From the IMG/VR virus record IMGVR_UViG_3300018910_000004, positions 1 to 40,999 of that record: a stretch of DNA of 40,999 bases. One strand, given 5' to 3'. Both the position numbers and the translations under genes were made by a program. The stretch's first letter is position 1; each line of letters begins with the position of its first letter. Of this stretch, positions 9,647-25,919 are shown one piece after another. The stretch comes from a virus. The notes below the pieces were generated by a model, which saw only the letters and a program-made list of their open reading frames with translations, did not search any database and had not been told where the DNA came from.

Positions 9647-9688
9647 ATGAAGCTAAAAAGAAATACACGACAGACAAAAGGAAACTAA
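9647..9688 (+). CDS. 13-codon mini-ORF (MKLKRNTRQTKGN) starting 5 nt after the -10, possibly leaderless
   Basis: ATG at 9647 and TAA at 9686..9688. No SD. May be only the 5' leader of the early transcript. Confidence 0.2.
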   Translation: MKLKRNTRQTKGN

Positions 9689-11264: not shown

Positions 11265-11338
11265 ATTAAACAAATAATAATGAATATATTTACAGCATTA
11301 TATCTCTTGATCGTACACATGATAAAAGGGGGTGAAGT

Positions 11339-11584: not shown

Positions 11585-11606
11585 TATATCCGTATAACTT
11601 CTTACA

Positions 11607-11633
11607 CTAGCTTTGAGCTTCTCTCAAGGCTAG
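11607..11633 (+). other. 11-bp stem-loop after 11339..11584
   Basis: CTAGCTTTGAG pairs with CTCAAGGCTAG (one GU) around a 5-nt loop. No U-tract. Confidence 0.5.
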
Positions 11634-11666
11634 CAATAAGGAATTATAAATTTAAAAAATAACCTT

Positions 11667-12086
11667 ATGAAAAAAATAGTAATGGATACAAATAAGGAAC
11701 ATTTTTCAGAAATGTTTGATGTTTCGCACGACAGTTATAAATCATTTGTTAAGGGAGCAATGAACTATATTATGCAGGAAGCAAAAAAAGAATTGGATAA
11801 GGGAGGCGAAAAAGCACGGAAAGAAGGTATAGACATAATTCCGTTCATAGAAACCTACATAAATGAGCACGCCTTAGAAAATGGTATCGACATAACGAAA
11901 CCTAATCACTGCTTAGTATTAGGATATATAATTTTCAATCTCAAAGATAATGTTGAACAGATGGAAAAGAAAGCTATGCTCATGAGATCGCTAAGCGGAA
12001 TTATGGAAATCAAAGAAATTATGGATACTCTACAAAAAGAAGATGTTAAAAGTTCAGATGACGAAAAAGAAAGGATTTTAAACTAA
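11667..12086 (+). CDS. Hypothetical protein (139 aa)
   Basis: Track ORF. No motif recognised. Confidence 0.6.
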   Translation: MKKIVMDTNKEHFSEMFDVSHDSYKSFVKGAMNYIMQEAKKELDKGGEKARKEGIDIIPFIETYINEHALENGIDITKPNHCLVLGYIIFNLKDNVEQMEKKAMLMRSLSGIMEIKEIMDTLQKEDVKSSDDEKERILN

Positions 12087-12087
12087 T

Positions 12088-13458
12088 ATGGAACCAACAC
12101 CAATAACGCTAACAAACAAAAAAGGGGGTGAAACGGTGGAATATGGAGCGCTCGAATTTGAAGTGCTACACCAGAAAAATAAGTCAGTGCCAGATCATGC
12201 CGATCCTGTAGAAATGGTAGAGGATGACCGGAACGCCCTCGGTCTATCTATTATCAATGATTTGCCAACTCTTTTAATAGGAGAGACTGGAACGGGTAAA
12301 ACTTCCGCTATAAGAGAACTTGCTTTTCTTAGAAAACAGGGATACACACGTATTAACATGCACGGATATGCAACACCGGATGATTTGATTGGTAGCAAAT
12401 CGGTAAAGAATGGGTCTACATATTATGAACAAGGGATTTTGACAAAGGCTATGACCGAAGGTCACATAACAGTACTTGACGAACTAAACGCTACTCCGCC
12501 AGACTGTTTATTCATAATCCATGGATTGTTGGATGAGGATAAACGCATCAGTTTACCAAATGGAGATATTGTAAAACCTCATAAAGACTTTAGATTTTTT
12601 GCCACTATGAATCCTGATTATGAGGGAACACGAGGATTAAACCGAGCATTTATTGATAGATTTTCTGTCATACTAAACGTTGAAGTGCTAAAACCTCAAA
12701 ACGAAACGAATGTACTGATGCAACGCACCGGATTAAAACAGGAGATGGTAGAAAAAATGGTTATGTTGGCACATATGGGACGAAAAGCATACGCCGAACA
12801 AAAGACATTGACCTTTATATCTACTAGATCACTACTTCAATGGGCTGGACTTGTTAAACATGGATTGGACATCAAAAAAGCATTTCAAACAAGTATCGTA
12901 AATAAGGCACGAGCAGAAGAACAATCCGCATTTCAAGATTTCTTTAGTGCTGTGTTCAAAAAAAGTTCTGATAATAATAATCTTGATATGCCTGTATTCA
13001 CAACACGAGGAGAGATAAAAAAGAAGGATGATCAACTATTAAAATATGAAAAGGCTATCAAAGAATATGAACGCATACACAAAAATGAAGTAAAAGAATT
13101 AGAAGAATTACGAATAGAATCTGTGACGGCACGTACTAAACTTCAGAATTTACTTGATAATTTAACGGGTACTGCTGGTAAACAAGCTATACAAGAAGCT
13201 CAAGCAGTATTACAACCAAGCGGAACAGGAGGAAGTGTAAAAGTAGAATGGGAAAGATATGAACCGATAGGAACGCCACAAGAATATACAAACGCTGATC
13301 CTATAGACCTTACTAAACTTGCAGGCACATCACATGCACTTGATGAAAAAATGTTACTTAAAGCATTGAATGTTTTGGACACTCAAGAACCCGTTAAAAG
13401 AACACGCAAAAAGAAAGCAGTAGAACCAATTAAAAATATTGACGAGAATCCATTTTAA
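12088..13458 (+). CDS. AAA+ ATPase, MoxR/CobS-like (AAA_5 type), with a C-terminal coiled coil
   Basis: Walker A LLIGETGTGKTSAI and Walker B HITVLDELNA. The start is uncertain: an in-frame GTG at 12136 sits 4 nt after an AAAGGGGGTGA motif. Confidence 0.85.
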   Translation: MEPTPITLTNKKGGETVEYGALEFEVLHQKNKSVPDHADPVEMVEDDRNALGLSIINDLPTLLIGETGTGKTSAIRELAFLRKQGYTRINMHGYATPDDLIGSKSVKNGSTYYEQGILTKAMTEGHITVLDELNATPPDCLFIIHGLLDEDKRISLPNGDIVKPHKDFRFFATMNPDYEGTRGLNRAFIDRFSVILNVEVLKPQNETNVLMQRTGLKQEMVEKMVMLAHMGRKAYAEQKTLTFISTRSLLQWAGLVKHGLDIKKAFQTSIVNKARAEEQSAFQDFFSAVFKKSSDNNNLDMPVFTTRGEIKKKDDQLLKYEKAIKEYERIHKNEVKELEELRIESVTARTKLQNLLDNLTGTAGKQAIQEAQAVLQPSGTGGSVKVEWERYEPIGTPQEYTNADPIDLTKLAGTSHALDEKMLLKALNVLDTQEPVKRTRKKKAVEPIKNIDENPF

Positions 13459-13461
13459 TCT

Positions 13462-15012
13462 ATGTACGCAACACAAGAATATATAGACATATTAACAATA
13501 GGATTATCGGCTCAAACAGGAATTGAGATACGGGCAGGGGGGGAATGGGCAGCAGACGTAAAACAAAAAATACTTTACTATAAAGCTGACTCCCTTCGCA
13601 ACTTGCCCTTTGGGCTTGTTCGTGGATTACTACTTCATGAGATAGCACATATAAAATGGACTGAAGAAGTTGATCCGTTTTCAGCGGTTGCCAAACCGTA
13701 TGAACATGCTATCCATAATGTTTATAACGCATTTGAAGATTTACGCATTGAACGAGAATTAAAAAGCACGTATGGAGATTATGCGACAAATGCCATAGAT
13801 GTTGCAAATTATTATGCATTGATCGATAAGATAGAAAAGAGTAAACAAGACCTAACATCGCTGAGCCGTATTGATCAATTTTTGAACCTTGTATTAATAG
13901 AAGACTTGATGGGAAAAAATGCAATAGTAAGACATAATATATATATAAGACTAGATGAGTTTAAAACCGATAAAAGAGTACAAGAAATTTTTGAAGAAAA
14001 TGAAGACATAATAGACCAAATATGTAATAATGTTCGTTGGTCTACAAGTACCCGAAAAATGGCAGAAATAATAGATGGAAATTTAATTCCAATCATTCGC
14101 GAGTTACTAGAGGAAGACGAAAAAGAACAGCAAAAAAAACAACAGGAAGATCAAGGAAAAGAAGGCGAAGAGGAAGGACAGGGACAAGGACAGAATCAAG
14201 GAAAAGGACAACCACAATCAAGAAAAGGAGGACTCATGGCTCAGTTATTAGAAGAATTAAAAGAGCAAACAGGATTACAGTATTGTCTTGATGGACATTT
14301 TAAAAATGCACCGCCAGTTGAAAGACCTACTGAAGCTGAAGCCCTAGCAATTTTAAGACCATATTCTTCTACTCTTGCCCAACGTCTTCGAGATATACTC
14401 ATTGAACGTGCAACAATTAGATATACTGGCAATACCAAATCGGGTAGACTTCTCAATCGTAATGCATACAAAGTAACAATACCAAATGAGACTCGTATAT
14501 TTAGTAGACGAACTAATCCTGATACACCAGACTATTCTGTTTATATAGCGCTTGATAGTAGCGGAAGTATGGCTAGTGAAGGTCGAGCTGTGTATGCATT
14601 CATGGGTGCCGTGCTGTTAAAAGATGTATGCCACCGACTCAATTTTCCTATTAAGATATTCGCTTATGACACAAAGGCGTGGGAATTAAAGAGGACAGAT
14701 GACTATCATGGAAATGGCGGTGGAACTAATGACGCAACAGCGCTCGATGCTATTAACAATGAAATGATAGCCGGAGATAATAACATTGTCTTTGTAGTAA
14801 CTGATGGTGAAACAGGACGAACCCAACAGTTTGATACTGTTAAAAAAGAACTTATAAAAAAGGGCGCTACTATATATGGTGTAGGTATTGGAAAAGAATC
14901 AAGTATCCAACACGCCATAAAACATAACTACGACCCCGCTATCTATGTGCCGGAAGTTAAAGACCTACCGCTTGAGCTCATTCGTACCATGAGGTTATTA
15001 ATTAAAAGATAA
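13462..15012 (+). CDS. HExxH metallopeptidase-like N-domain fused to a C-terminal von Willebrand A domain (CobT/DUF2201-like)
   Basis: LLLHEIAHIKW (HExxH). MIDAS motif YIALDSSGSM with downstream VFVVTDGETG. Central E/K/Q/G low-complexity linker. Confidence 0.8.
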   Translation: MYATQEYIDILTIGLSAQTGIEIRAGGEWAADVKQKILYYKADSLRNLPFGLVRGLLLHEIAHIKWTEEVDPFSAVAKPYEHAIHNVYNAFEDLRIERELKSTYGDYATNAIDVANYYALIDKIEKSKQDLTSLSRIDQFLNLVLIEDLMGKNAIVRHNIYIRLDEFKTDKRVQEIFEENEDIIDQICNNVRWSTSTRKMAEIIDGNLIPIIRELLEEDEKEQQKKQQEDQGKEGEEEGQGQGQNQGKGQPQSRKGGLMAQLLEELKEQTGLQYCLDGHFKNAPPVERPTEAEALAILRPYSSTLAQRLRDILIERATIRYTGNTKSGRLLNRNAYKVTIPNETRIFSRRTNPDTPDYSVYIALDSSGSMASEGRAVYAFMGAVLLKDVCHRLNFPIKIFAYDTKAWELKRTDDYHGNGGGTNDATALDAINNEMIAGDNNIVFVVTDGETGRTQQFDTVKKELIKKGATIYGVGIGKESSIQHAIKHNYDPAIYVPEVKDLPLELIRTMRLLIKR

Positions 15013-15015
15013 TAC

Positions 15016-15044
15016 TTGACAAATAAGGTATTATATGGTATTAT
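15016..15044 (+). promoter_or_regulatory. Sigma-70 promoter with extended -10
   Basis: TTGACA, 17 nt ending in TGG, TATTAT, then ATG 15054 nine nt downstream. Confidence 0.65.
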
Positions 15045-15053
15045 AGAATCATA

Positions 15054-15239
15054 ATGAAAGCTAAAAGATACAAAATCACAACCAAAATACATTTTTTCGT
15101 AACAGCTAAGAATCCTGAAGATGCAGCCATGGAATTTATTAATATATTCAACACTGTGGTATATGCCACAGGGGGTGAGAGAAGTTTTGCGCTAGTTAAG
15201 GGAAAAGAAGGATTAAAAGTTGAAGAACTACCATTCTAA
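15054..15239 (+). CDS. Hypothetical protein (61 aa)
   Basis: First ORF after the promoter. No SD, and only a very short leader is expected. Confidence 0.55.
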   Translation: MKAKRYKITTKIHFFVTAKNPEDAAMEFINIFNTVVYATGGERSFALVKGKEGLKVEELPF

Positions 15240-15240
15240 T

Positions 15241-15375
15241 ATGAGAATACCTGAGGAAGATCTATGTCCGGACTGCGGACAAGAATTAATACGAACCTAT
15301 GAAGAACGAGCACCTGGATATGTAGAAGTTGTTTATTATTGTAAATGTGGATCAAACTATTATGAAAGACGTTAA
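15241..15375 (+). CDS. Zinc-ribbon mini-protein (44 aa)
   Basis: Hand-translated: MRIPEEDLCPDCGQELIRTYEERAPGYVEVVYYCKCGSNYYERR. Two Cys pairs. Confidence 0.5.
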   Translation: MRIPEEDLCPDCGQELIRTYEERAPGYVEVVYYCKCGSNYYERR

Positions 15376-15390
15376 AGATTTAATACTAGC

Positions 15391-15687
15391 ATGGGGATTA
15401 GTTCTTATCTTAGGAATTATAAGTTATTACATTATTACGCTCTTATGAAAAAACCAGAGCCATTTATAAATGATTTCAGTAAACCCAAGAAAGTTGTTGA
15501 AGCAGAGATTGAAGAAAGAAAAAAGATTGGTAACACTCGAAAACTTATGTATACAATAATAGGATTGTTAGTAGTCTTAGTACTCTACACAGTATTTTAT
15601 TACATAAGTTTATTTTACGATAATTATAAAGTCACATTTTATGAACCAATAAAATTACACGTTCCATTTACTATATATGAAAGATAA
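15391..15687 (+). CDS. Membrane protein with one TM segment (98 aa; alternative start at 15445)
   Basis: Hydrophobic segment LMYTIIGLLVVLVLYTVFYYISLFY. Confidence 0.55.
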   Translation: MGISSYLRNYKLLHYYALMKKPEPFINDFSKPKKVVEAEIEERKKIGNTRKLMYTIIGLLVVLVLYTVFYYISLFYDNYKVTFYEPIKLHVPFTIYER

Positions 15688-15973
15688 ATTATATCCAGAT
15701 TGCACAGCATGTAATGAATATCAAAAAAATAGAATAGGCATAGTCTGTCCTACTCATAAAAATGTAGAGATACAAAAAATGTGGGAAGCAGTAGTTAATA
15801 AAAAACCTAGCTACTGTATACTATGGTTTCATGATTGGGGAGATTGGAAAGATGATGAGCGATATGATATTTTAGGAATGTTTAGTGCGATTCGAGGACA
15901 TGGAATATTACAAATAAGAGAGTGTAACCAATGTCACAAAAAACAAATAAGAAAAGAGGAGGTATATGCATGA
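15677..15973 (+). CDS. Cys-rich hypothetical protein (98 aa)
   Basis: CTAC...CPTH and CNQCH motifs. Confidence 0.5.
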   Translation: MKDKLYPDCTACNEYQKNRIGIVCPTHKNVEIQKMWEAVVNKKPSYCILWFHDWGDWKDDERYDILGMFSAIRGHGILQIRECNQCHKKQIRKEEVYA

Positions 15974-16185
15974 TGAGCCCTGAAGAATTATCTGTTTTAA
16001 AAATGGTAAAGTTTGCAATACTGATGGAAACGAACAGCGGTGTTTTAGGGAAATCACCTGATTATATTATAGAAAAATTTGAAAGATGTGGAGACATTAA
16101 AACTCCAGAAGAATTATTAGACGGTCTTGATGCTGCTAATGAACATAAAATGAGAGGTTACCATGAACGATGGCTTAAAAAATGA
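15931..16185 (+). CDS. Hypothetical protein (84 aa)
   Basis: Track ORF. Start uncertain, and it overlaps the upstream ORF by 43 nt. Confidence 0.45.
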   Translation: MSQKTNKKRGGICMMSPEELSVLKMVKFAILMETNSGVLGKSPDYIIEKFERCGDIKTPEELLDGLDAANEHKMRGYHERWLKK

Positions 16186-16325
16186 ATAGAGAATGTAAAA
16201 GATGCACTAATTGCTGGGCGTTAAAAGATCTGAATATGTTTCATAAAGACAGAAAGAATAAAGATGGACTGCATTATTATTGTAAAAAGTGTAGAGAAAA
16301 TAATCGTAAAAAGTTAGAAATTTGA
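16182..16325 (+). CDS. Zinc-finger mini-protein (47 aa)
   Basis: ATGA overlap with the upstream stop. MNRECKRCTNCWALKDLNMFHKDRKNKDGLHYYCKKCRENNRKKLEI. Confidence 0.5.
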   Translation: MNRECKRCTNCWALKDLNMFHKDRKNKDGLHYYCKKCRENNRKKLEI

Positions 16326-16334
16326 GAGAGGATA

Positions 16335-16368
16335 AGAGCCTAACTTGTTTAGTAGGCGGTTAGGCTCT
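16335..16368 (+). other. Perfect 10-bp stem-loop
   Basis: AGAGCCTAAC (16335..16344) pairs with GTTAGGCTCT (16359..16368) around a 14-nt loop. No U-tract. Confidence 0.5.
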
Positions 16369-16380
16369 ACATATTAGCTT

Positions 16381-16683
16381 ATGAAAACTATCGAACACAC
16401 CACCGATCTAAATGCAGCGGCTTACTATTACGCAAAAGGTGGAAAGGTAAAAATTACTATTGGTGAAAATAGATGGGTAACTAAATACGCCTTTAGTCGA
16501 CGAGTAAAACAACGCATTTGGAAATTCGCTATCGAGATAGATGACAAGTATGTAAAATCTTACTGGTCAAAAAAGGCTACTATGAACGTAAGAAAATATA
16601 TGGAAAGCCGAAATGAAATAAAAAAGAAATGTTATGAATTTGACACAGGAAAACACGTTAACAGTTGGTTTCATCACTTATAA
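16381..16683 (+). CDS. Hypothetical protein (100 aa), possibly DUF5659-like
   Basis: The N-terminal TTDLNAAAYYYAKGGKV pattern resembles that family, from memory only. Confidence 0.5.
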   Translation: MKTIEHTTDLNAAAYYYAKGGKVKITIGENRWVTKYAFSRRVKQRIWKFAIEIDDKYVKSYWSKKATMNVRKYMESRNEIKKKCYEFDTGKHVNSWFHHL

Positions 16684-16688
16684 TACAC

Positions 16689-16717
16689 TTGACAATTAGT
16701 TACTAATAAGGTATAAT
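16689..16717 (+). promoter_or_regulatory. Consensus sigma-70 promoter
   Basis: TTGACA, 17 nt, TATAAT, then ATG 16728 ten nt downstream. Confidence 0.7.
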
Positions 16718-16727
16718 ATGGGATATT

Positions 16728-16907
16728 ATGGAAAATGAATACATGACAATAGAAGAGGTAGCAAATCTTTTAAAGATCAATCCTCGCCAAGTAAGAAAGA
16801 TGATAGAGACAGGAAGGCTGAGAGCTAAAAACATCAATGCTTCCGGCGGAATCCGGAAGATATATAGAGTATTGAAGGAAGATGTGATACGACCAGACAC
16901 TATTTGA
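16728..16907 (+). CDS. Excisionase/MerR-type HTH DNA-binding protein (59 aa)
   Basis: Hand-translated: MENEYMTIEEVANLLKINPRQVRKMIETGRLRAKNINASGGIRKIYRVLKEDV... The antisense track ORF 16703..16900 is its shadow. Confidence 0.6.
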   Translation: MENEYMTIEEVANLLKINPRQVRKMIETGRLRAKNINASGGIRKIYRVLKEDVIRPDTI

Positions 16908-16941
16908 TTACAAATATTGTGGAAAGGGGGTGAAAAAAATT

Positions 16942-17325
16942 ATGGGAGAATTAGCCAAGTTAGCTAAAGCGAGGTCGCCATTTCTACAGGTTGAACCTGG
17001 AAAATCGACGGTTTGCGTTTATAAGGGCTACAAAATGATTCCCGACACGTTTGATCCAACTAAGGAGAAATTTAGATTTATCCTTATTGAAGATGGTGTA
17101 GAGAAATTCTTTGATACATCATCGAATAGAGTTGCGCTTGTTATGGATGAAGCTGCGGAAGAGATTAAAAACAAAACCGGTAAAGGTTTCGTCAAAGTAA
17201 CAAGAGGAATCAAAACATCCAAAGACGGAAAAACAAAAACTCAATGGGAGGCAGAAAACGTTATGGACGAAAGTGGCACTGTTAGCAAAAAACAAGCTGA
17301 GGATTTCGCACTCGAGATCAAATAA
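16942..17325 (+). CDS. Probably abundant early protein (127 aa), function unknown; a DNA-binding or OB-fold role is speculative
   Basis: The track start 16930 is a GTG inside the RBS AAAGGGGGTGA. ATG 16942 lies 8 nt after it. Followed by an intrinsic terminator. Confidence 0.65.
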   Translation: MGELAKLAKARSPFLQVEPGKSTVCVYKGYKMIPDTFDPTKEKFRFILIEDGVEKFFDTSSNRVALVMDEAAEEIKNKTGKGFVKVTRGIKTSKDGKTKTQWEAENVMDESGTVSKKQAEDFALEIK

Positions 17326-17341
17326 GCGATGTTTTTTAAAG

Positions 17342-17373
17342 CCTGATGATGGTGGAAGCTATCATTAGGTTTT
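17342..17373 (+). terminator. Intrinsic terminator
   Basis: 9-bp stem CCTGATGAT / ATCATTAGG (one GU), 10-nt loop, then TTTT. Confidence 0.6.
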
Positions 17374-17380
17374 AGAAAAT

Positions 17381-17656
17381 ATGAATACATTTTATATCAT
17401 AATTGGTAAAGTAGTTTTACTCACACTAGCATTCTTTTTAACACTTGCCGCCACTCTTTATTTTAACTTCAAATACATTCCAGACAAACACGCTAATGAA
17501 ATGTTTGCCGCTATGCTTATAAGTTATGGAGCAGGCACAGTCTTTTCACTCATAACGGTGCTCCTATTCACTCGAGATGACTATGAATACACAACAGACA
17601 CTGATCAAACAGAAAGTGGAGTACGCCCTGAAGTTCTCGAAGAAGTTACAGTTTGA
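17381..17656 (+). CDS. Membrane protein with 2 predicted TM segments (91 aa)
   Basis: Hydrophobic segments VVLLTLAFFLTLAATLYF and LISYGAGTVFSLITVLLF. Confidence 0.55.
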   Translation: MNTFYIIIGKVVLLTLAFFLTLAATLYFNFKYIPDKHANEMFAAMLISYGAGTVFSLITVLLFTRDDYEYTTDTDQTESGVRPEVLEEVTV

Positions 17657-17822
17657 CTACGTGGCAAAAGATTTAGAAATAACTCGAGATCGCATAGTCA
17701 TTCCACACGAACTAAGAAACGATGAGAATGATGAACCGTGGAGATTGTTTGCAACCGATACAAAGGACAGTAAACTTCGAGGATTTCACGTTGCAGGCAT
17801 TCAAGAGTTAAAAGTTGTGTAA
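17577..17822 (+). CDS. Hypothetical protein (81 aa), start uncertain
   Basis: Track ORF that overlaps 17381..17656 by 80 nt in another frame. Confidence 0.4.
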   Translation: MTMNTQQTLIKQKVEYALKFSKKLQFDYVAKDLEITRDRIVIPHELRNDENDEPWRLFATDTKDSKLRGFHVAGIQELKVV

Positions 17823-17845
17823 TAATAGAAATGAGGTGAAATCAC

Positions 17846-18067
17846 ATGGGAAGAAAAAAGAAGATTGAAGAGCCTAAGAAAAAATGGTATGTTATTTCTA
17901 GTAGTATTTATGGCAGTCTCGACGACGTAAAAAGACAAATCGAGGAATGGCAAGAAGAAGAAAGACTAGATGGAGATGCACGTATTTTTATAGTTGAGAA
18001 AGAAATTGAATTTCAAATAAAAGAAATGTGTGTTACAGAAGAACCAGAAGAGGTTAGAGGATACTAA
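17846..18067 (+). CDS. Hypothetical acidic protein (73 aa)
   Basis: GAGGTGA RBS 7 nt upstream of the ATG. Confidence 0.6.
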   Translation: MGRKKKIEEPKKKWYVISSSIYGSLDDVKRQIEEWQEEERLDGDARIFIVEKEIEFQIKEMCVTEEPEEVRGY

Positions 18068-18091
18068 TTAATAGAAAGGAGGTGACGACGT

Positions 18092-18238
18092 ATGGATAGT
18101 GGACACAAACCAACACAAGACGAGGTTAATGCTCGCAATGAGGAAAGCCGCCGACTTGACGCTGAGAAAGATAACAAGGAGATGACTCCTGAAGAAAAAG
18201 AACAGCGTGAAGTAGATAACCAAAGAGGCGCAGAGTAA
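18092..18238 (+). CDS. Hypothetical 48-aa charged protein
   Basis: AAAGGAGGTGA RBS 6 nt upstream. Hand-translated: MDSGHKPTQDEVNARNEESRRLDAEKDNKEM... Confidence 0.55.
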   Translation: MDSGHKPTQDEVNARNEESRRLDAEKDNKEMTPEEKEQREVDNQRGAE

Positions 18239-18320
18239 CTTCTTTTTCAGTTGTCTCTAATGAAAGGTGGGACGACTGATTTGGCAAGTTAGCCAGAAAT
18301 AGGAAAGGGGGTGAAAAAAT

Positions 18321-18590
18321 ATGATCGTAACATTGATAGTAGGATTAATCGCAGGACTTATAGCCGCTGCAGTCATGAAAACTTCATACCCATGGTATGT
18401 AGACATGATAATTGGTGTAATAGGAGCTTTCGTCGGAAGTTTCTTATTAGGATTACTTAATGCACCTACATATAGTGGTGCTGCACCAGGAGGAAATATC
18501 GTTTGGGATATTATTGTTGCAACCCTAGGAGCTATTGCTCTTATTGCTGTCACAAGATTTATCGCCGGACAAATGGATAGCCGAACATAA
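18321..18590 (+). CDS. GlsB/YeaQ/YmgE-family (transglycosylase-associated) small membrane protein
   Basis: Gly-zipper TM pattern IVGLIAGLIAAAV ... IIGVIGAFVGSFLLG ... ATLGAIALIAV. AAAGGGGGTGA RBS. Confidence 0.7.
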   Translation: MIVTLIVGLIAGLIAAAVMKTSYPWYVDMIIGVIGAFVGSFLLGLLNAPTYSGAAPGGNIVWDIIVATLGAIALIAVTRFIAGQMDSRT

Positions 18591-18596
18591 AAGTTA

Positions 18597-18625
18597 AGGG
18601 CGGGTGAGTAATACTTATCCGCCCT
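18597..18625 (+). other. GC-rich stem-loop after 18321..18590
   Basis: AGGGCGG pairs with CCGCCCT and the helix can be extended. No downstream U-tract on the plus strand. Confidence 0.45.
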
Positions 18626-18635
18626 AAATATAAAC

Positions 18636-18893
18636 ATGATAATAGAACCAATTAGACCATACATGCTTGTTGAGATAGAAAAAAAGGAAGAAAAAACGCC
18701 AGGTGGCATTATACTACTTGAAAGAAGAAAAGATAGCTTACAAGAAGGCAAACTCATTAAATCATCCTTACCCATGTGTAATAATCGTGTTGGAATGAAA
18801 GTATATTTCAAGATGTGGGCAGGAGAACCGGTTGACAATACAAATTATAAATTAGTACATATAAAAGACATCGTTGCTTATGAACAAACTTAA
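18636..18893 (+). CDS. groES: GroES/Cpn10-like co-chaperonin (85 aa)
   Basis: Aligns by eye to GroES: IEPIRPYMLVE vs IRPLHDRVIVK, EEKTPGGIIL vs ETKSAGGIVL, VGMKVYF vs VGDIVIF, and a C-terminal KDIVAY. Confidence 0.7.
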   Translation: MIIEPIRPYMLVEIEKKEEKTPGGIILLERRKDSLQEGKLIKSSLPMCNNRVGMKVYFKMWAGEPVDNTNYKLVHIKDIVAYEQT

Positions 18894-19065
18894 TACAATG
18901 CTATGGATATATTCAGGGATTTGGTTAACAGCCCTCTTTATATTCCTCATATACGCCATGCTAAAACTTAATATAGATTTATTAGGCTACATAGCGCTAT
19001 CTATTGCACCCTTCGCTTTATTAACACTAAAGATTGGGAGAAAACACTTGACAAATTTAGAATAA
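18874..19065 (+). CDS. Small membrane protein (63 aa; the likelier start is ATG 18898, just after the groES stop)
   Basis: Two hydrophobic segments. Confidence 0.5.
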   Translation: MLMNKLNTMLWIYSGIWLTALFIFLIYAMLKLNIDLLGYIALSIAPFALLTLKIGRKHLTNLE

Positions 19066-19076
19066 TATACTAGATT
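19048..19076 (+). promoter_or_regulatory. Sigma-70-type promoter overlapping the end of 18874..19065
   Basis: TTGACA (19048..19053), 17 nt, TAGATT (19071..19076). Confidence 0.5.
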
Positions 19077-19185
19077 ATTTATAGACAACACAGAGAAAAT
19101 ATCTAGCTGATATTTAAACAGTTGTACGTTGGGCTTTGGCTTAGCTAGAGCCTACTCTGTGAGCCCAGCGTAGAGCTGTTTTTTT

Positions 19186-19410
19186 ATGGACAATCCACCA
19201 CAACAAACAACAATCAAACTGACTCCCCTACAACTTCTTAAAAAGAATGCGCCCGCCATATACCAAACATACTCCAACAAAATGATCAATAAACTTACCA
19301 ATGAGATACACGCACTCGAATTTGATCTTAAACATTCAATGGAAGAAAACAAACAGAAGATTATAGAGCTGATTACAGAAAAGAAAAATGAGCTTGCCCT
19401 ATTCGATTAA
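19186..19410 (+). CDS. Hypothetical coiled-coil protein (74 aa)
   Basis: Track ORF preceded by a roughly 100-nt structured leader that ends in T7 immediately before the ATG. Confidence 0.55.
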   Translation: MDNPPQQTTIKLTPLQLLKKNAPAIYQTYSNKMINKLTNEIHALEFDLKHSMEENKQKIIELITEKKNELALFD

Positions 19411-19492
19411 CAAAAAGGAGTCCCGAAGGACTCCTAATTGTTGAAAGCTAAAAAGTACGACTAGGGGTTTAATCTAAGCGGATACTTTTTAT
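19411..19492 (-). ncRNA. Candidate phage small RNA of about 80 nt
   Basis: Bounded by a consensus promoter (19499..19527, minus) and the terminator at 19412..19435. No AUG. A 5' domain has an 8-bp stem (19483..19490 with 19450..19457) closing a 25-nt loop. Confidence 0.55.
19412..19440. terminator. Bidirectional intrinsic terminator
   Basis: 8-bp GC-rich stem AGGAGTCC / GGACTCCT with a 4-nt loop (UUCG on the minus strand). Flanked by AAAAA on the left, which gives U5 for the minus transcript. Confidence 0.75.
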
Positions 19493-19498
19493 AGAAGT

Positions 19499-19527
19499 AC
19501 TATACCATACAAAGCGTTATTTGTCAA
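19499..19527 (-). promoter_or_regulatory. Minus-strand sigma-70 promoter with extended -10
   Basis: Reverse complement reads TCTTGACAAATAACGCTTTGTATGGTATAGT: TTGACA, 17 nt, TATAGT with a TGG prefix. Near-identical to the plus-strand promoters at 9613 and 15016. Confidence 0.65.
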
Positions 19528-19784
19528 GAGAGCTATTAAAGTCGTGAGGGGTACAGCAGATGGCGACTATAAATCGGTGCAACTCCGAATAAGAAATAAC
19601 TAGGCACATGTTCTTAGAAAGCGGACTGCTAGAAGTGAGTGACGCCTTACACCCGGCTAATAGGAAGGGTGTAACCAAACACGGAATGAACCGGATAAAT
19701 ACCTTAATAGAGGGGGTAGGGGGGAGTTGAATCCCAATCCGGAATAGAATATTTAAAAATACAATTCCTATTTAAAAATAAGTA

Positions 19785-19812
19785 TTGCAAAATTTAAAGA
19801 TAAGAGTATATT
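19785..19812 (+). promoter_or_regulatory. Candidate promoter with a leaderless start
   Basis: TTGCAA, 16 nt, TATATT, then ATG 19819 beginning 7 nt after the -10. Confidence 0.45.
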
Positions 19813-19818
19813 CAAAGT

Positions 19819-20211
19819 ATGGAACAAGAACAAAAGGGAGAAATAGAAACCTTTAGTCCACCAGAACAGGATAGAATAGTACAATATCAACGTATGCTTC
19901 ATTTAGTAGATTCAGCTTCAAGAGATCTTCAAGATAGAAACCCCACAGTCTTTGTATATAAATATGCGGATGAGAAACAGCCTCCACGCTATATGTATAC
20001 CATAGATGAATGTTTTATAGAAGGTATGCAGCATGCGGCGGAGAACTTAAAAAAGAAATATTCGGCGTCCCCTCATATGAAGCGAGCATTTGAGAATATA
20101 GACGAGGCGTATAGGATTGAGAAAGAAACCGAGGAGGCTTATCAAATCCGAGACTGTGAAAAGATGTGGGAAAATGGTATGCCAGTATACGATGACCCAA
20201 ATAACTATTGA
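19819..20211 (+). CDS. Hypothetical protein (130 aa)
   Basis: Track ORF. No motif recognised. Confidence 0.6.
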   Translation: MEQEQKGEIETFSPPEQDRIVQYQRMLHLVDSASRDLQDRNPTVFVYKYADEKQPPRYMYTIDECFIEGMQHAAENLKKKYSASPHMKRAFENIDEAYRIEKETEEAYQIRDCEKMWENGMPVYDDPNNY

Positions 20212-20236
20212 CATTTATCGTATTATATGGTATACT
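20208..20236 (+). promoter_or_regulatory. Sigma-70 promoter with extended -10
   Basis: TTGACA, 17 nt ending in TGG, TATACT, then ATG 20247 ten nt downstream. Confidence 0.65.
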
Positions 20237-20246
20237 AAGATATAAC

Positions 20247-20477
20247 ATGGAAGCTAAAGATATATCAACACCAATTCTTTCCGAAATTAAAACACTAGAA
20301 ATAAAACCAGAAGGACGTTATCTTTTGGTACTCCCCAAGTCCAGTGCTGGCACAGAGGCTGAACTTACTCAGCTTAATGAAGCTCTTAAAAACTTATTTG
20401 GAAGCGCTCGTGTATTAGCAATTTTTGTTAACGAAATAAGTGATGTAAAAATCGCTGCGTTAATGGAGGAAAAATAA
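20247..20477 (+). CDS. Hypothetical protein (76 aa)
   Basis: The track ORF 20208..20477 begins inside the promoter. The internal ATG 20247 (MEAKDIST...) fits the promoter geometry. Confidence 0.55.
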   Translation: MEAKDISTPILSEIKTLEIKPEGRYLLVLPKSSAGTEAELTQLNEALKNLFGSARVLAIFVNEISDVKIAALMEEK

Positions 20478-20513
20478 AGGGATTTATTATTAAAAATTTA
20501 TACACACAACAAT

Positions 20514-20771
20514 ATGAGTATAAGAAATAGCACGTTGGGTGGGAGACAGAAAATAAGTTTGAAAGAGCGCGATGTTCTTATTTACGGCGACGAGAAAATA
20601 TTAATATTCTCGACCGAAGATAATAACGATTTGTTAAGTTCAGACAAATTAATGGATATTGCCATCGGCTTCTTAGAAGAGGAAAAATATTTATTTGATA
20701 AAAAAGAAGATTTTAATAAATTTGTAGACGATTATATTAAAGAATTACAATCTATTAAAAGAAAAAAATAA
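20514..20771 (+). CDS. Hypothetical protein (85 aa)
   Basis: Track ORF. Confidence 0.55.
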   Translation: MSIRNSTLGGRQKISLKERDVLIYGDEKILIFSTEDNNDLLSSDKLMDIAIGFLEEEKYLFDKKEDFNKFVDDYIKELQSIKRKK

Positions 20772-20772
20772 T

Positions 20773-21003
20773 ATGGCAGACACAAGAATACATTTGGTAA
20801 AAGAATTAGAAGCACGATTACCTAGGGGTAATACTTCTATCACAAGCGACTTGCTGCAGATAATAGCAAAAGCTAAGGCTGGGTATTATCATGACTTTGA
20901 ATCACCTGTAGCAACGCCAAAGATGGAATTAGTAAAAGATCTACGCGATGTTGGATTTACTGATATAGCGTCCAGAGTTATCAATGGAGATTATGATGAA
21001 TAA
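20773..21003 (+). CDS. Hypothetical protein (76 aa)
   Basis: Track ORF, abutting the upstream stop. Confidence 0.55.
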   Translation: MADTRIHLVKELEARLPRGNTSITSDLLQIIAKAKAGYYHDFESPVATPKMELVKDLRDVGFTDIASRVINGDYDE

Positions 21004-21145
21004 TTACACACCACTTAAACTTATGACCGTTAAAGAACATGAAGCCAAATTAGTTGCAATGTTTTTAGGGATCATTGTAACCATATTATTAATTGTACTT
21101 GGAGTATGGTTTTTCTCTAACAATCCTCCTCCATCTATTAAATGA
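20993..21145 (+). CDS. Small single-TM membrane protein (50 aa)
   Basis: Hand-translated: MMNNYTPLKLMTVKEHEAKLVAMFLGIIVTILLIVLGVWFFSNNPPPSIK. ATGA overlap with the next gene. Confidence 0.5.
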   Translation: MMNNYTPLKLMTVKEHEAKLVAMFLGIIVTILLIVLGVWFFSNNPPPSIK

Positions 21146-21900
21146 CTATTAAACATTTTTTATATAACAATACCGTTGAGCTTGAGTTTGATGAAGAAAA
21201 GCATTTATATCATATAGGTCAAACTAAGGTTGATGGAGTCACAGGAGTTCTTACAGTCATCAACAAACCAGCTCTTATCTTTTGGGCAGTTAATAAGGCT
21301 GTCTCTTTTCTTGAGAAAACATTTGTAGCCGGCAAAGTCTATGATGAAATGCAGGTTAAGGAAATGTTAGACACCGCAAAGACCGCACATCGTAAGAGTT
21401 CCAGCGAAGCATCTAACCTAGGAAAGTTTGTGCATCAATGGATAGAAGATTATATTGCGGGTAAGAACCCAGCAATACCGGTGAACCCTCAAATGAAATT
21501 TGCGATAGATAGTTTTCTTAAATGGGAGAAAGATCACAATGTAAAGTTTTTAAAATCCGAACAGATTGTATATTCGAAAGAATTTAAGTATGCAGGTACG
21601 CTAGATTTTACCTGTGAGTATGACGGGAAAAAATACTTAGGAGACTTTAAAACATCAACCGCTATATATGATGAGTATTGGTTACAAACCGCTGCTTATC
21701 AACACGCTTACTTAGAGGAATTTCCTAATGAAAAAATTGATGGTACTATAATAGTAAGGATAGGGAAAGATGGTACTGTAGACTTTGAAGCTAGTACGCC
21801 GGAAGATTATAAAAAAGATTTCAACGCTTTCTTAGGAGCTCTCATGTTGCGAAGAAGGTTAGAAGAACGTAAGTTTAATAAAACACAAAATGGACAGTAG
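21142..21900 (+). CDS. PD-(D/E)XK nuclease (RecB/Cas4-like phage exonuclease)
   Basis: GTLDF ... YLGDFKTS (D...D-x-K) followed by QTAAYQHAY (QxxxY). Confidence 0.65.
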   Translation: MTIKHFLYNNTVELEFDEEKHLYHIGQTKVDGVTGVLTVINKPALIFWAVNKAVSFLEKTFVAGKVYDEMQVKEMLDTAKTAHRKSSSEASNLGKFVHQWIEDYIAGKNPAIPVNPQMKFAIDSFLKWEKDHNVKFLKSEQIVYSKEFKYAGTLDFTCEYDGKKYLGDFKTSTAIYDEYWLQTAAYQHAYLEEFPNEKIDGTIIVRIGKDGTVDFEASTPEDYKKDFNAFLGALMLRRRLEERKFNKTQNGQ

Positions 21901-22219
21901 TAAATTAGCCAATCTGACTAAATTAAATAATCATATAGACGAACAAGTAGAAGAGTTTGTAAAAGCTACATCTAATCAACGGGCATATATTATAGAGAGC
22001 CAAATTAAACAAGATTTATCCTTATTCGCAGCGCATGAAATTGAAACACTATTAATGAGTTGTATAAAAGGAATGTCACATGATGTAGCACGTATGATAG
22101 TAGATAAATTTAATATTGAAGTTGCATATGAAAAAGGTAACACAACCAATCCTTTACACGATCAGATGATTTTAAGATTAAGGTTGATTGAAAAAAGTAC
22201 AGGTAAGATAATAGAATAA
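21890..22219 (+). CDS. Hypothetical protein (109 aa)
   Basis: Track ORF. Confidence 0.55.
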   Translation: MDSSKLANLTKLNNHIDEQVEEFVKATSNQRAYIIESQIKQDLSLFAAHEIETLLMSCIKGMSHDVARMIVDKFNIEVAYEKGNTTNPLHDQMILRLRLIEKSTGKIIE

Positions 22220-22242
22220 CGGTTAATTATTATTAATAATAT

Positions 22243-22449
22243 ATGAAAAAAACATTAACAGCTATAGACATTAAACAGCCAGCGGGTAAACCTATATATA
22301 GTAAGGGTGTAGCGCATTTTAGAATTACAGAAGAATTCAGAGAGTTTATAGACCGCTGTGAAAAGAAACACGGTGTTATAGGTTTTGAATACACTAAAGG
22401 AGAATTGAGTTTAGGAGTATTGTTAGGAGATAAAGGGGGTGAAGAATAA
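22243..22449 (+). CDS. Hypothetical protein (68 aa)
   Basis: Track ORF. The antisense ORF 22233..22517 is judged to be a shadow. Confidence 0.55.
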   Translation: MKKTLTAIDIKQPAGKPIYSKGVAHFRITEEFREFIDRCEKKHGVIGFEYTKGELSLGVLLGDKGGEE

Positions 22450-22620
22450 ATGTACGATTCAGCAAATGATATTGAGATTAAATGTATAGGATGTGGAAAG
22501 AATTTTATCTTTACCACAAGAGATCAGGATTTTTACGCTGAGAAAGGATATTCAGATCCAAAGCGTTGTTATAGTTGTCGAAAGGCAAAAAAGTTAGAAA
22601 GAGAAAAAAATGACCGTTAA
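22450..22620 (+). CDS. Zinc-ribbon protein (56 aa), zf-trcl-like
   Basis: AAAGGGGGTGA RBS. IKCIGCGKNFIFTTRDQDFYAEKGYSDPKRCYSCRKAKK. Confidence 0.55.
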   Translation: MYDSANDIEIKCIGCGKNFIFTTRDQDFYAEKGYSDPKRCYSCRKAKKLEREKNDR

Positions 22621-22921
22621 TAAAGGAATATTTAAACCGGATAAGTATATAAAGCATGTCTCATTTAGCCGAGCTGTTTTATGGAAGAATAGAGAGTTGT
22701 CTTTACCACCCTCTATTATGAAAAAAATAGAGAAAGAAAAGATACCTCTTATCAGATTTATAGATGACGGCAAGCAAGAACAATGGGATTTTGATACTGA
22801 AGATGTAGTCCGACTTATGATGCTAAAACAGGTAGGACAAGAGAAACAGTATTATTTCCCAATAGGACTAGCCAAAAGATATAAGCCTGATGAAACTAGA
22901 ACTAAATTAATACGAATATGA
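22610..22921 (+). CDS. Hypothetical protein (103 aa)
   Basis: Track ORF. Confidence 0.55.
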   Translation: MTVNKGIFKPDKYIKHVSFSRAVLWKNRELSLPPSIMKKIEKEKIPLIRFIDDGKQEQWDFDTEDVVRLMMLKQVGQEKQYYFPIGLAKRYKPDETRTKLIRI

Positions 22922-22991
22922 AAAGTCTTGTATATAAAAAAGTACCAGTAATGGAGAATTTAGAAGTTGAGAAATGGGAGGAGGAAACACT

Positions 22992-23210
22992 ATGGACAAA
23001 ACTGACTTATCTACTGCAGAGGATATTGAGATTTTTGAAGGGGTAGGAGAAAAGATTATGAGCGGAAGTTTTCGCTTTACCTATAATCCTAAAGAAGAAA
23101 AATTCGATGCCTTTATAGAAAGATTTGATATGTATTGGAATCAACTAAGAACATCATGTTTAAGAAAAGCAGCTCGTGATCAGGGATTAGATATTAAATT
23201 TGAGGATTAA
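22992..23210 (+). CDS. Hypothetical protein (72 aa)
   Basis: GGAGG lies 7 nt upstream of ATG 22992. The track start 22974 lacks an RBS. Confidence 0.55.
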   Translation: MDKTDLSTAEDIEIFEGVGEKIMSGSFRFTYNPKEEKFDAFIERFDMYWNQLRTSCLRKAARDQGLDIKFED

Positions 23211-23227
23211 TAAAGCGTGATAGTATT

Positions 23228-23416
23228 ATGGAAAAATTTAATGGAGTACCACCAGAAGAATTAGGGATAGAAATACTAGGTTTTTGTGTTCCTTATGAGA
23301 TATTAGGAGTAACCGGATATGAAGAACAAGATTTAACTGATGCTGATCAATTTACAACACAACAAATAGAAGTGCTAGAAAAAGAGGGAGTTATATTTGA
23401 AGATAAATTAAAATAA
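23228..23416 (+). CDS. Hypothetical acidic protein (62 aa)
   Basis: Track ORF. Confidence 0.5.
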   Translation: MEKFNGVPPEELGIEILGFCVPYEILGVTGYEEQDLTDADQFTTQQIEVLEKEGVIFEDKLK

Positions 23417-23418
23417 TT

Positions 23419-23529
23419 ATGAAAGAAACAATACGATTTATAATAACAATACCGTTTATACTCATATATGTAGGCGTATCTATAATACTTGAGAAATTAG
23501 GTATATTAAAAGTTAAAGATGTAGAATAA
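23419..23529 (+). CDS. 36-aa membrane peptide
   Basis: Hand-translated: MKETIRFIITIPFILIYVGVSIILEKLGILKVKDVE. Fills the gap exactly. Confidence 0.4.
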   Translation: MKETIRFIITIPFILIYVGVSIILEKLGILKVKDVE

Positions 23530-23530
23530 T

Positions 23531-23845
23531 ATGGGAGGATTTGATTTAACAGATATAGCAGGAAATTCAGAAGGCGTTGCACCAACAACAACTAATGAAC
23601 CGTTATATCAGGTAAACAATAGAGGTTCTCGCAATCCTTTTGCTGAAGAAACCGAAGAAGCACCAAGTGCTCCTAGGGTTGACAAACAGGAGGTTGAGCG
23701 TACTATAATAAAGGAAGAACCGCAAGATGGAAAAGAGAAATTATGGGATATAACAAGTGAGGCTCATTCAGGAGGTCAGTTTAAAGCTGGCGAAGTGGAT
23801 GAAAAACATTTAGAATTTCTTAAAGATACTGAAATTATTGAATGA
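23531..23845 (+). CDS. Acidic, probably disordered protein (104 aa)
   Basis: Track ORF rich in E, D and P. Confidence 0.55.
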   Translation: MGGFDLTDIAGNSEGVAPTTTNEPLYQVNNRGSRNPFAEETEEAPSAPRVDKQEVERTIIKEEPQDGKEKLWDITSEAHSGGQFKAGEVDEKHLEFLKDTEIIE

Positions 23846-23891
23846 TATTCGACTTTTATAAAGTTCGAGTTAGAAAGGGGGTGAAGAAAAT

Positions 23892-24452
23892 ATGGCAAAC
23901 AAAAATACCAAGGTCACGGATGAAAGTGGAACAATGAAGGCGGCAACGTCTGAAACTGCAAAAGATAACGAATTTGCAGACTACAATAAACCTATGCAAC
24001 CTATTACCCCAGACGGTAATAAGTCTGTAGCAGGTGGAGTTCCAGGAGTAGATCCGGGAGTAAATTATGCTGAAGCTGATGCAGATCTTGTAGATCCTAA
24101 ATTAGTAGAAGCTGCTCAACTACGCCCACGAGGTGCACAGGGAGGCTCCCAAACAGACCGTCTTACCGGAATCCAGCAAAAAATGCAAGGTGCTGGAAGG
24201 AAAGATGAACCTTCTGCTCGTGGTACTGTTAAAGTTGGCGATGAATATGTCAACATGGCAGGACACCCACCTGGTTTACCAGGAGAGGAAAAAGTAGAAA
24301 AGAAAGGTGTTAGTATTCGCTCAGCCGATGGTAGATCACTTTATGTGTCTATTAATGGTCAAAAATGGGAAGGTACGGAACTTACTGTTCCTGAAAAATA
24401 TGCTAATGAAGCAAAAAGAATTCTCATGGAAGGCGGATATTACATTAAATAA
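23892..24452 (+). CDS. Hypothetical protein (186 aa) with a disordered N-terminal half
   Basis: AAAGGGGGTGA RBS 7 nt upstream. Confidence 0.65.
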   Translation: MANKNTKVTDESGTMKAATSETAKDNEFADYNKPMQPITPDGNKSVAGGVPGVDPGVNYAEADADLVDPKLVEAAQLRPRGAQGGSQTDRLTGIQQKMQGAGRKDEPSARGTVKVGDEYVNMAGHPPGLPGEEKVEKKGVSIRSADGRSLYVSINGQKWEGTELTVPEKYANEAKRILMEGGYYIK

Positions 24453-24464
24453 GCCATAAAACCT

Positions 24465-24758
24465 ATGTTTAAGCCCGATAAACATAAACAAGAGACAAAA
24501 CAGTTTACCGTCAGCAATGACGAATTATCTGAATTGTCCTTCTTGGCGACGGTGCTACGGATAAAGCAGGAAGAATTAGCCTTCTTTTCCGAACGACTCC
24601 GGCAAGTCCGAGCCGGGGTTGAGCGCCGCTATAGCCTGAATGAAACATTTGAAGTAGATTGGAGTCATGTATTCCCCGAAGGTAAAATATTTGCCAAAAA
24701 GCGTCCGTTACAAGAGGCTCCTAAAGATGGCAACGAATTACAGCAGGAGTCGAAGTAG
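24465..24758 (+). CDS. Hypothetical protein (97 aa)
   Basis: Track ORF. Confidence 0.55.
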   Translation: MFKPDKHKQETKQFTVSNDELSELSFLATVLRIKQEELAFFSERLRQVRAGVERRYSLNETFEVDWSHVFPEGKIFAKKRPLQEAPKDGNELQQESK

Positions 24759-25074
24759 AGAATACTTGACCCAACAAGAGTTTGAAAAAGATGGCTGGTA
24801 TGCCATTCGTTCAGCAGGATCGCATGGAGTCGCTGATGTGATAGCTATACGTCCCTCTGATTGTGGCATACCTTCTCATTTTGAAGTAAAGTTCATTCAG
24901 ATAAAAGTTTCTGAAAATTTACGGAAAACTTCGAAAACTATTTATATGGAAGATGAAAAGTTACCATTTCCTATAAATGTAGACTTATGGAAATTTCCGG
25001 TTAAATCTACCAAATGGCACAAAGCCACTAAAAAACAACATGCTAAACCTAAACAAAAAACAAGTGTTCGATGA
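24727..25074 (+). CDS. Hjc-type (archaeal-like) Holliday junction resolvase, PD-(D/E)XK fold
   Basis: SRSREYLTQQEFEKDGWYAIRSAGSHGVADVIAI ... FEVKFIQIK matches the E ... D ... E-x-K layout. I prefer the internal ATG 24727 to the track start 24667. Confidence 0.6.
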   Translation: MATNYSRSRSREYLTQQEFEKDGWYAIRSAGSHGVADVIAIRPSDCGIPSHFEVKFIQIKVSENLRKTSKTIYMEDEKLPFPINVDLWKFPVKSTKWHKATKKQHAKPKQKTSVR

Positions 25075-25594
25075 CGCACTCTATAATTCAGTCATGCAGC
25101 TTCACTATCCACTCTATCAATATATAGTTACTAATTATCGCAATGAAATATGGGATGGTAATTTAGCCTCAATAGCAGTGTTTGGTGATTACTCGCTTCC
25201 CCTAGCTATTGAACTCTCTCAATTTAGATACCCTGTAACATATATTGCAAAAGATTTACCCGAGCTTGAAGCTGCTAAGAAAAGTAATGAGAAGATGGGA
25301 GGACATTTAATCCATGATGCTTTTTGGTTTGATTACACTCAGAATATTCCTCGAGTACACATAGCACTTTTTGTAGATGTATTAGAAAACATGGTGTCAG
25401 ACAACAGGATATATACCTATATTGATCTTTTATTGCGAAGATGTGGGGAGATAGTGTGTAGTGTAAAATCGACGTTAAATTGGCGGTCTATTCTTGAACC
25501 TTTTTATGACATTAATATCATGCCGTATCCAAATAAGGAGAGATTAGTATTAAGAATTAGAGAGAAAGCTTCTCATCCGGAGAACTCCACATAG
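25040..25594 (+). CDS. Hypothetical protein (184 aa), weakly methyltransferase-like
   Basis: Track ORF. IAVFGDYSLPLAIELS is only a faint Rossmann-like hint. Alternative start at 25094. Confidence 0.5.
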   Translation: MLNLNKKQVFDDALYNSVMQLHYPLYQYIVTNYRNEIWDGNLASIAVFGDYSLPLAIELSQFRYPVTYIAKDLPELEAAKKSNEKMGGHLIHDAFWFDYTQNIPRVHIALFVDVLENMVSDNRIYTYIDLLLRRCGEIVCSVKSTLNWRSILEPFYDINIMPYPNKERLVLRIREKASHPENST

Positions 25595-25919
25595 GAATAA
25601 TAGGTTTTTCAGTCTCCAAATCTACAACCTTATATTTAGCAGTCGGTTTATCATTTCTTGCCTCACTTAATTCTTTAATCTTTTTAGCAACCTTACCTTG
25701 AGATAACCACGTTCCAATCTTTAACCATTCTTTAGGTAATGGACTACGAAAAAGAATAGCAAGACCCGTAAAAAAGAAATACCAAAAGGATATGGTGAGT
25801 ATGATAAGAGAATCTATAAAGGGAGGAAGTTTGGTTGTAACCACCGTATTAATTCTATCCCTAAATTGAACTTTAGGTTTAGGCGCTACATATGGTGTGT
25901 CTATCATTGGATGAGCCAT
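25557..25919 (-). CDS. Membrane protein (120 aa), last gene of the late arm
   Basis: TM segment LIILTISFWYFFFTGLAILF. Its 3' end overlaps 25040..25594 tail-to-tail. Confidence 0.55.
   Translation of the reverse strand: MAHPMIDTPYVAPKPKVQFRDRINTVVTTKLPPFIDSLIILTISFWYFFFTGLAILFRSPLPKEWLKIGTWLSQGKVAKKIKELSEARNDKPTAKYKVVDLETEKPIIPMWSSPDEKLSL

Follow-up and report, generated by a model that had tools for sequence, protein, structure and literature searches.

The whole stretch of DNA analysed here (the window, 40,999 nt, about 41 kb) corresponds approximately to the complete genome of a single uncultured phage, which is also represented in ENA and Logan assemblies by contigs of 41,013 and 40,902 bp. 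Structural genes occupy the minus strand at both ends of the genome, and a plus-strand arm (approximately 9600-25600) carries small early-type genes, a CobS/CobT-like pair, a GroES-like gene and an exonuclease gene. No DNA-level similarity to GenBank phages was detected (50,697 phage records, searched in near and distant modes), and no tRNA or tmRNA genes were found in the window. The minus and plus arms are separated by an AT-rich divergent region (9300-9500, 28% GC) with about 15 degenerate TTCTTA/ATTCTTATT repeats immediately upstream of the first early promoter (9613); this repeat region may be an origin or a regulatory region.

Within the plus-strand arm, the first-pass annotation had pointed to a stand-alone RNA of about 80 nt, transcribed against the early genes from a consensus promoter into a minus-oriented terminator. 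At the level of the sequence this description is borne out (Table 1). Between the predicted start and the terminator lie about 57 nt, the predicted RNA ends within the U-tract, and the 82-nt RNA (19492..19411) contains no AUG, as had been claimed, and no GUG either.

Table 1. Features of the small-RNA locus and its putative target sites (positions in the window).
Feature	Position	Strand	Remarks
-35 hexamer TTGACA	19522..19527	-	context CTCTTGACAAATAACG common to plus-strand early promoters 9613 and 15016
Extended -10 element TGG-TATAGT	19499..19507	-	17-nt spacer ends in TGG; TATAGT at 19504-19499
Predicted non-coding RNA, ~82 nt	19411..19492	-	start inferred at A19492, 7 nt past the -10
Hairpin 1	19449..19491	-	AU-rich 9-10-bp stem UAAAAAGUA / UACUUUUUA, 25-nt loop UCCGCUUAGAUUAAACCCCUAGUCG
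Candidate seed 5′-GUACUUUUUAGCUUUCA-3′	19442..19458	-	3′ arm of hairpin 1 plus unpaired linker
Intrinsic terminator AGGAGUCC-UUCG-GGACUCCU + U5 (then GUU)	19411..19435	-	hairpin 19435-19416
Convergent orphan gene, 74 aa, hydrophilic	19186..19410	+	stop codon 19408-19410 adjoins the small-RNA 3′ end
Putative target 1	15054..15071	+	start and first codons of gene 15054-15239; 10 nt past the -10 of promoter 15016-15044
Putative target 2	9647..9660	+	predicted 5′ end from promoter 9613-9641; AUGAAGCUAAAAAG opens a 13-codon ORF
Putative target 3	20247..20260	+	start codon region of gene 20247-20477; 11 nt past the -10 of promoter 20208-20236

The promoter reads on the minus strand as first described (TTGACA, 17 nt and TGG-TATAGT at 19527..19499), matching 11 of 12 consensus positions and carrying the extended -10 TG. 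Promoters with at least 11 of 12 positions and the upstream TG number three in the whole window, against 0.17 expected, and the pattern TTGACA-N14-TGGTAT-NN-T has exactly three perfect matches there (15016 and 20208 on the plus strand, 19527 on the minus strand). The claim that this is the sole minus-strand promoter in the plus-strand arm is true for this quality class (approximately 9600-25600). Its -35 flanks (CTTGACAAATAACG) are also found at promoters 9613 and 15016. A metagenome scan with the 26-nt promoter pattern returned 46 unrelated contigs; in nearly all of them a TATAAT-like hexamer comes next, and the downstream genes that are visible are preceded by a ribosome-binding site and a start codon. 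The presence of the pattern before TATAAT-like hexamers in unrelated contigs indicates that this is a generic, very strong promoter of the primary sigma factor, with a -16 element of the TRTG type. Such elements are typical of low-GC Gram-positive hosts.

The terminator, with an 8-bp stem containing five G-C pairs and the 3′ tail UUUUUGUU (hairpin and tail together, 19435-19408), ranks first among the terminator-like sites of the whole window. When read in the plus direction, the same hairpin (19416-19435) is followed by UAAUUGUUG and has no U-tract. The minus direction thus has the better U-tract, as had been noted, and its presence on that side only argues that the terminator serves the minus strand. 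Identical copies of the 23-nt terminator GGAGTCCTTCGGGACTCCTTTTT are found in 30 viral IMG/VR contigs that are unrelated otherwise (L066-L095), directly past the ends of unrelated protein-coding genes. Such recurrence points either to a small mobile module or to convergence towards an optimal terminator with a UUCG cap; the small-RNA terminator itself is an ordinary, effective one.

The whole small RNA folds with a minimum free energy of -27.7 kcal/mol (z = -6.5), mostly contributed by the terminator. The stem with a 25-nt loop that had been proposed for its 5′ part is present, with perfect arms of 9 nt each (19449-19457 / 19483-19491), and in isolation this hairpin 1 is weak (-8 kcal/mol, z = -2.5). 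A linker of 13-14 nt joins it to the terminator hairpin, and part of this linker (AGCUUUCA) is unpaired in the minimum free energy fold and has no partner inside the small RNA. No Rfam family, phage antisense families included, was matched: the whole window gave no match at the gathering score, and at E <= 10 the sole overlapping match in 19000-20000 was TarB, which is unrelated (15.9 bits against a gathering score of 80). Iterons or tandem repeats that would mark an origin were not found at the locus. We consider it likely, judging from promoter, terminator and the lack of a reading frame, that the locus is a real, discrete transcription unit producing a non-coding RNA of about 80 nt. It is probably a phage small-RNA gene, an orphan within the known class of phage-encoded antisense small RNAs.

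The convergent 74-aa protein (GRAVY -0.66) had no significant match to defence or toxin families: PADLOC returned at best a hit of 13.9 bits (E = 0.0085), and NCBIfam returned none. A hit of this protein to the ParB family was weak and below threshold (E = 2e-4). A type I toxin-antitoxin arrangement of the SR4/bsrG or RatA/txpA kind was rejected, because the neighbouring protein is hydrophilic and not a small hydrophobic membrane peptide. The 74-aa gene begins right after an upstream U7 tract and has neither a ribosome-binding site nor a promoter of its own. Since two inward-pointing terminators bracket it, the gene should be transcribed by read-through only. The small RNA and the convergent message share just the terminator hairpin unless that message reads through, and the small RNA is perfectly complementary to any such plus-strand read-through.

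The surroundings of the locus contain further unusual segments. Just upstream of gene 19186, on the plus strand, lies a second unit of promoter, structured RNA and terminator (19048-19185): TTGACA-17-TAGATT (19048-19076) is followed by about 100 nt without AUG, comprising a small hairpin and then a long one (19116-19181) with U7 (-39.9 kcal/mol, z = -4.8). This unit might encode a second small RNA; alternatively, it may serve gene 19186 as a terminating leader (attenuator). On the other side, the 290 nt between the small-RNA promoter and gene 19819 (19528-19818) hold no credible gene, which is unusual for such a tightly packed genome. They contain G-rich tracts (GAGGGGT at 19548 and GAGGGGGTAGGGGGGAG at 19710-19726) and a 10-codon ORF at 19561 with a ribosome-binding-like site ahead of it; the plus strand is moderately structured at 19640-19739 (z of about -3), and 19528-19818 gave no Rfam match.

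Searches for relatives were largely negative. Five contigs of the phage compared over 19100-19900 are 100% identical, with no variation in that interval, and no relative carrying the small-RNA locus was found in any collection searched. The two flanking genes (74 aa and 130 aa) proved to be orphans when 5.8 billion proteins were searched, no protein of a GenBank phage matched the 130-aa neighbour, and defence and annotation libraries returned nothing useful for the neighbours or the putative targets. Homologues of the exonuclease share at most 67% identity, and the only syntenic one is on a 2.2-kb contig (L019) that ends short of the small-RNA locus. The other contigs sharing the exonuclease or CobS gene (L017, L020-L022, L096-L097 and L006-L016) are mosaics that lack the locus. 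A scan with the stem-and-terminator pattern found only unrelated terminators before ribosome-binding sites, and an nhmmer search of 92 loci (L006-L097, the five identical phage copies excluded) returned those same terminators only. One of the distant phages sharing the exonuclease (L020, positions 1-20783; Logan SRR32548942) encodes a set of RNA-repair-like proteins (TROVE/Ro60, RlaP, RNA ligase, PNKP-like kinase/phosphatase, Thg1 and NAMPT), with a gene-free gap of 650 nt before the TROVE gene; upstream of that gap Rfam models identified one tRNA (1094-1164), and no Y RNA reached the gathering score.

Listing every TTGACA in the genome exposed a motif common to early transcripts. This motif, AUG(N)AAGCUAAA(A)G, is predicted to open the transcripts of promoters 9613, 15016 and 20208, in the forms AUGAAGCUAAAAAG, AUGAAAGCUAAAAG and AUGGAAGCUAAAG, respectively, and the candidate seed of the small RNA is its complement. 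When the locus was compared with the genome by short-word BLAST, the longest two matches to its transcribed part were 12 nt (15055-15066) and 11 nt (9650-9660), both within the first 20 nt past strong early promoters. GAAGCTAAA occurs only twice in 82 kb (both strands), both times at these early 5′ ends. Target 1 could form 12 contiguous Watson-Crick pairs with the small RNA, and 16 of 17 over 15055-15071, a stretch that takes in U and G of the start codon. For target 2 there are 11 contiguous pairs plus one G-U (12 pairs with 9649-9660). Target 3 is the weakest of the three, with 8 Watson-Crick pairs, or 13 including G-U (20248-20260). The seed pairs are AU-rich.

Co-folding gave ddG values of -12.7, -12.0 and -7.9 kcal/mol for targets 1, 2 and 3, compared with -1 to -4 for the other promoter-proximal 5′ ends. 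Among 4030 windows genome-wide, however, the three sites rank 22, 35 and 248 by co-folding energy, and G-rich coding sites (for example 9880-9934) outscore them; target ranking by energy alone, which does not single out the proposed sites, was rejected. With 2000 dinucleotide-shuffled small RNAs tested against five promoter-proximal windows, the probability of a longest run of at least 12 was 0.0025, and the sum of the top three runs, 31, was reached by 0 of the 2000 shuffles (19.5 +/- 2.1), both comparisons being post hoc. Among real genomic 82-mers, a run of at least 12 was present in 0.2-0.5% of windows; none of the 2112 antisense windows of the plus arm attained a sum of 31 or more, and a single one of the 9208 remaining windows did. 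Runs of 12 nt to one or other of the five promoter-proximal windows also exist at three further sites in the genome, and the other high-scoring 82-mers match different parts of single windows, outside the shared motif. The seed match to three early 5′ ends, noticed post hoc, is thus unusual against both shuffled and genomic controls (P of about 0.003 or lower).

Neither a shared protein nor the fold of the small RNA readily accounts for the match. The first proteins past promoters 15016 and 20208 are unrelated, their genes not being paralogues, and at 9647 the motif falls in a different frame, which together indicate that the motif is conserved as nucleotides and not as protein. Likewise, AGCUUUCA has no internal partner, so formation of a hairpin does not account for the complementarity of the linker. 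As for the position of the motif, the AUGs are 6, 10 and 11 nt past the -10 hexamers (promoters 9613, 15016 and 20208, respectively), which places them behind predicted leaders of about 0-4 nt, the start sites themselves being inferred. Such spacing implies that these early messages would be leaderless or nearly so. Four strong promoters with the ATG of the first gene 7-11 nt past the -10 are seen at 15016-15056, 16689-16730, 20208-20249 and 19785-19821.

These observations suggest a mechanism in which host RNA polymerase with its primary sigma factor would initiate at about 19492, from the very strong minus-strand promoter, and would halt at the strong intrinsic terminator at about 19411. The RNA would act by antisense base pairing through GUACUUUUUAGCUUUCA, half of which is unpaired linker and half belongs to the weak, easily opened AU-rich stem. 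The seed would pair in trans with the motif on three early messages, covering the start codon and the first codons, and the pairing would either block ribosome binding or trigger decay. The predicted outcome is that the leading genes of three early operons would come under negative feedback with a delay. An additional local cis-antisense effect, of the lambda OOP kind, might be exerted on read-through of 19186-19410. Taken as a whole chain, a trans antisense regulator that uses linker and 3′ arm as its seed against the start regions of three early operons is the best-supported reading of function, which we put forward tentatively. That a single-seed trans RNA, pairing across leaderless start codons, amounts to an RNA-based global shut-off of early expression in three operons appears to us doubtful. 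The small RNA belongs to the same promoter class as its proposed targets, so that the logic of the timing is not obvious. Instead of pairing with an RNA, the shared motif may bind a protein at the DNA level or enhance initiation.

The main rival to trans regulation is a local cis element of the lambda OOP or P22 sar type, in which the RNA, or convergent transcription as such, would act on read-through of 19186-19410 only, either destabilizing the read-through RNA or insulating gene 19819-20211 from upstream transcription, with the match to early 5′ ends being incidental. The geometry suits this explanation, since the end of the small RNA abuts the stop codon of the convergent gene exactly, the gene lies between the inward-pointing terminators 19116-19185 (+) and 19411-19435 (-), and the lack of a U-tract in the plus direction makes read-through likely; known phage RNAs of similar size and layout act in this way (PMC12197685). 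Against it, the RNA covers an intergenic stretch only and finds there no coding sequence or ribosome-binding site to control, gene 19819 may be served by its own promoter (19785-19812), and the significant match to three distant early 5′ ends is left unexplained. We regard a local OOP-like or insulating role as rather unlikely.

It is unlikely, too, that the locus has no RNA function at all, being a relic promoter beside a terminator, or that TGAAAGCTAAAAAGTAC is a DNA site for a regulatory protein, present in four copies of the same orientation. All four copies are indeed on the plus strand, as would be expected of a DNA site or of duplication, the small-RNA 5′ end (AUAAAAAGUAUC) is similar to the early 5′ ends, as a duplicated promoter module might be, and the segment 19186-20211 is unique to this phage. 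However, chance is very unlikely to have placed a top-class promoter about 57 nt ahead of the best terminator, a terminator correctly oriented for this strand alone. The motif is not palindromic and lies 35-50 nt downstream of the small-RNA start, an odd position for an operator, and the likeness to gene 15054 ends abruptly after 17 nt, with no gradual decay.

The first-pass annotation had suggested a role for the loop of hairpin 1, in which AAACCCCU would mask the AGGGGGU core of the phage's ribosome-binding site. The favoured site AAGGGGGTGA is real but is found on a minority of genes: about eight have a very strong AAGGGGGTGA, and many others have no ribosome-binding site. Against 65 phage start regions the best duplex of the loop has -17.1 kcal/mol, compared with -18.7 +/- 2.3 for shuffled loops, 74% of which pair equally well or better, and the mean and top-five duplex energies are likewise unremarkable; the masking proposal did not survive this comparison. 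A C-rich-loop RNA of the RsaE/RoxS type was rejected on the same shuffled-level pairing to the 65 start regions and for want of an Rfam match. Exact matching of the 19-nt loop core and its complement found no copy in 185,579 species genomes (GTDB) or in IMG/VR, and so gave no sign of a mimic of a CRISPR repeat (an RNA anti-CRISPR) or of a host RNA. A pattern scan with the 20-mer of the linker gave six scattered chance hits. The small RNA's best predicted partner by energy (-20 kcal/mol) is a purine-rich repeat, GAGAGAGTTAGAGAGTGAAGCGGTAGAAGTAC, at 9880-9934 (+), inside the first early gene led by a ribosome-binding site; it contains AAGCGG, the complement of CCGCUU in the loop, perhaps by chance. 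Thus, although the large loop with its CCCC run, the weak stem, the succession of hairpin, U-rich linker and terminator typical of trans-acting small RNAs, and the precedent of phages that target host messages (lambda PreS and others) would fit a trans-acting RNA that uses its loop on host or other phage messages, by masking, decoy or mimicry, such a role is quite improbable given the shuffled-level pairing and the absence of the loop core from species genomes and IMG/VR.

Phage regulatory RNAs are known from few model phages, and most of the predicted ones come without proposed targets. The present candidate is unusually clean, as it combines a promoter of the top class, no ORF and the best terminator of the genome with a target hypothesis that can be falsified. 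If trans regulation through the seed is true, the RNA would be an RNA-only switch for early shut-off that silences three operons at their start codons. It would also be a case of small-RNA control on leaderless messages, of which, to the knowledge of the authors of a 2022 review of leaderless translation, no example had been reported (PMC9031893). If the seed is misread, the locus would be another orphan phage small RNA of the OOP type.

By layout, the candidate most resembles lambda OOP, a 77-nt RNA transcribed from promoter pO against the early operon and ended by an intrinsic terminator (PMC12197685). Both are non-coding RNAs of about 80 nt, with a host-type promoter of their own in the early region and an intrinsic terminator, at the 3′ end of a convergent gene. 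OOP, however, overlaps about 50 nt of the 3′ coding end of cII and acts in cis via RNase III, whereas the candidate stops at the stop codon (19408-19410), so that the overlap is noncoding and at most the U-tail touches the gene; this defining coding-end overlap of OOP is therefore lacking. In addition, the candidate has no similarity to lambdoid oop (50,697 phage records, near and distant modes), and the only non-random complementarity found for it is to distant sites. Lambda PreS is also a stand-alone RNA of about 80-90 nt with limited complementarity. It targets the host dnaN message and depends on Hfq, whereas the candidate targets found here are phage early messages only.

P22 sar is a small antisense RNA made from a promoter opposing an early phage one, and it pairs across a start region, blocking initiation of translation (PMC12197685). 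The pairing proposed for the candidate would also span start regions; in contrast, sar lies opposite the ribosome-binding site of ant and is fully complementary to it, whereas the start regions matched by the candidate are 800 to 9,800 nt away and the pairing involves 12-17 nt. The c4 RNAs of P1 and P7 and the CI RNA of P4 use short complementarity to repeated sites close to the start of early transcripts to shut down early expression. These RNAs are processed from the very transcript that they regulate, on its strand, whereas the candidate is encoded elsewhere, on the opposite strand and under its own promoter, and it does not match the Rfam C4 model. With its one seed matching three promoter-proximal sites, the candidate would nevertheless, by its logic, most resemble the c4/CI immunity RNAs of P1, P7 and P4.
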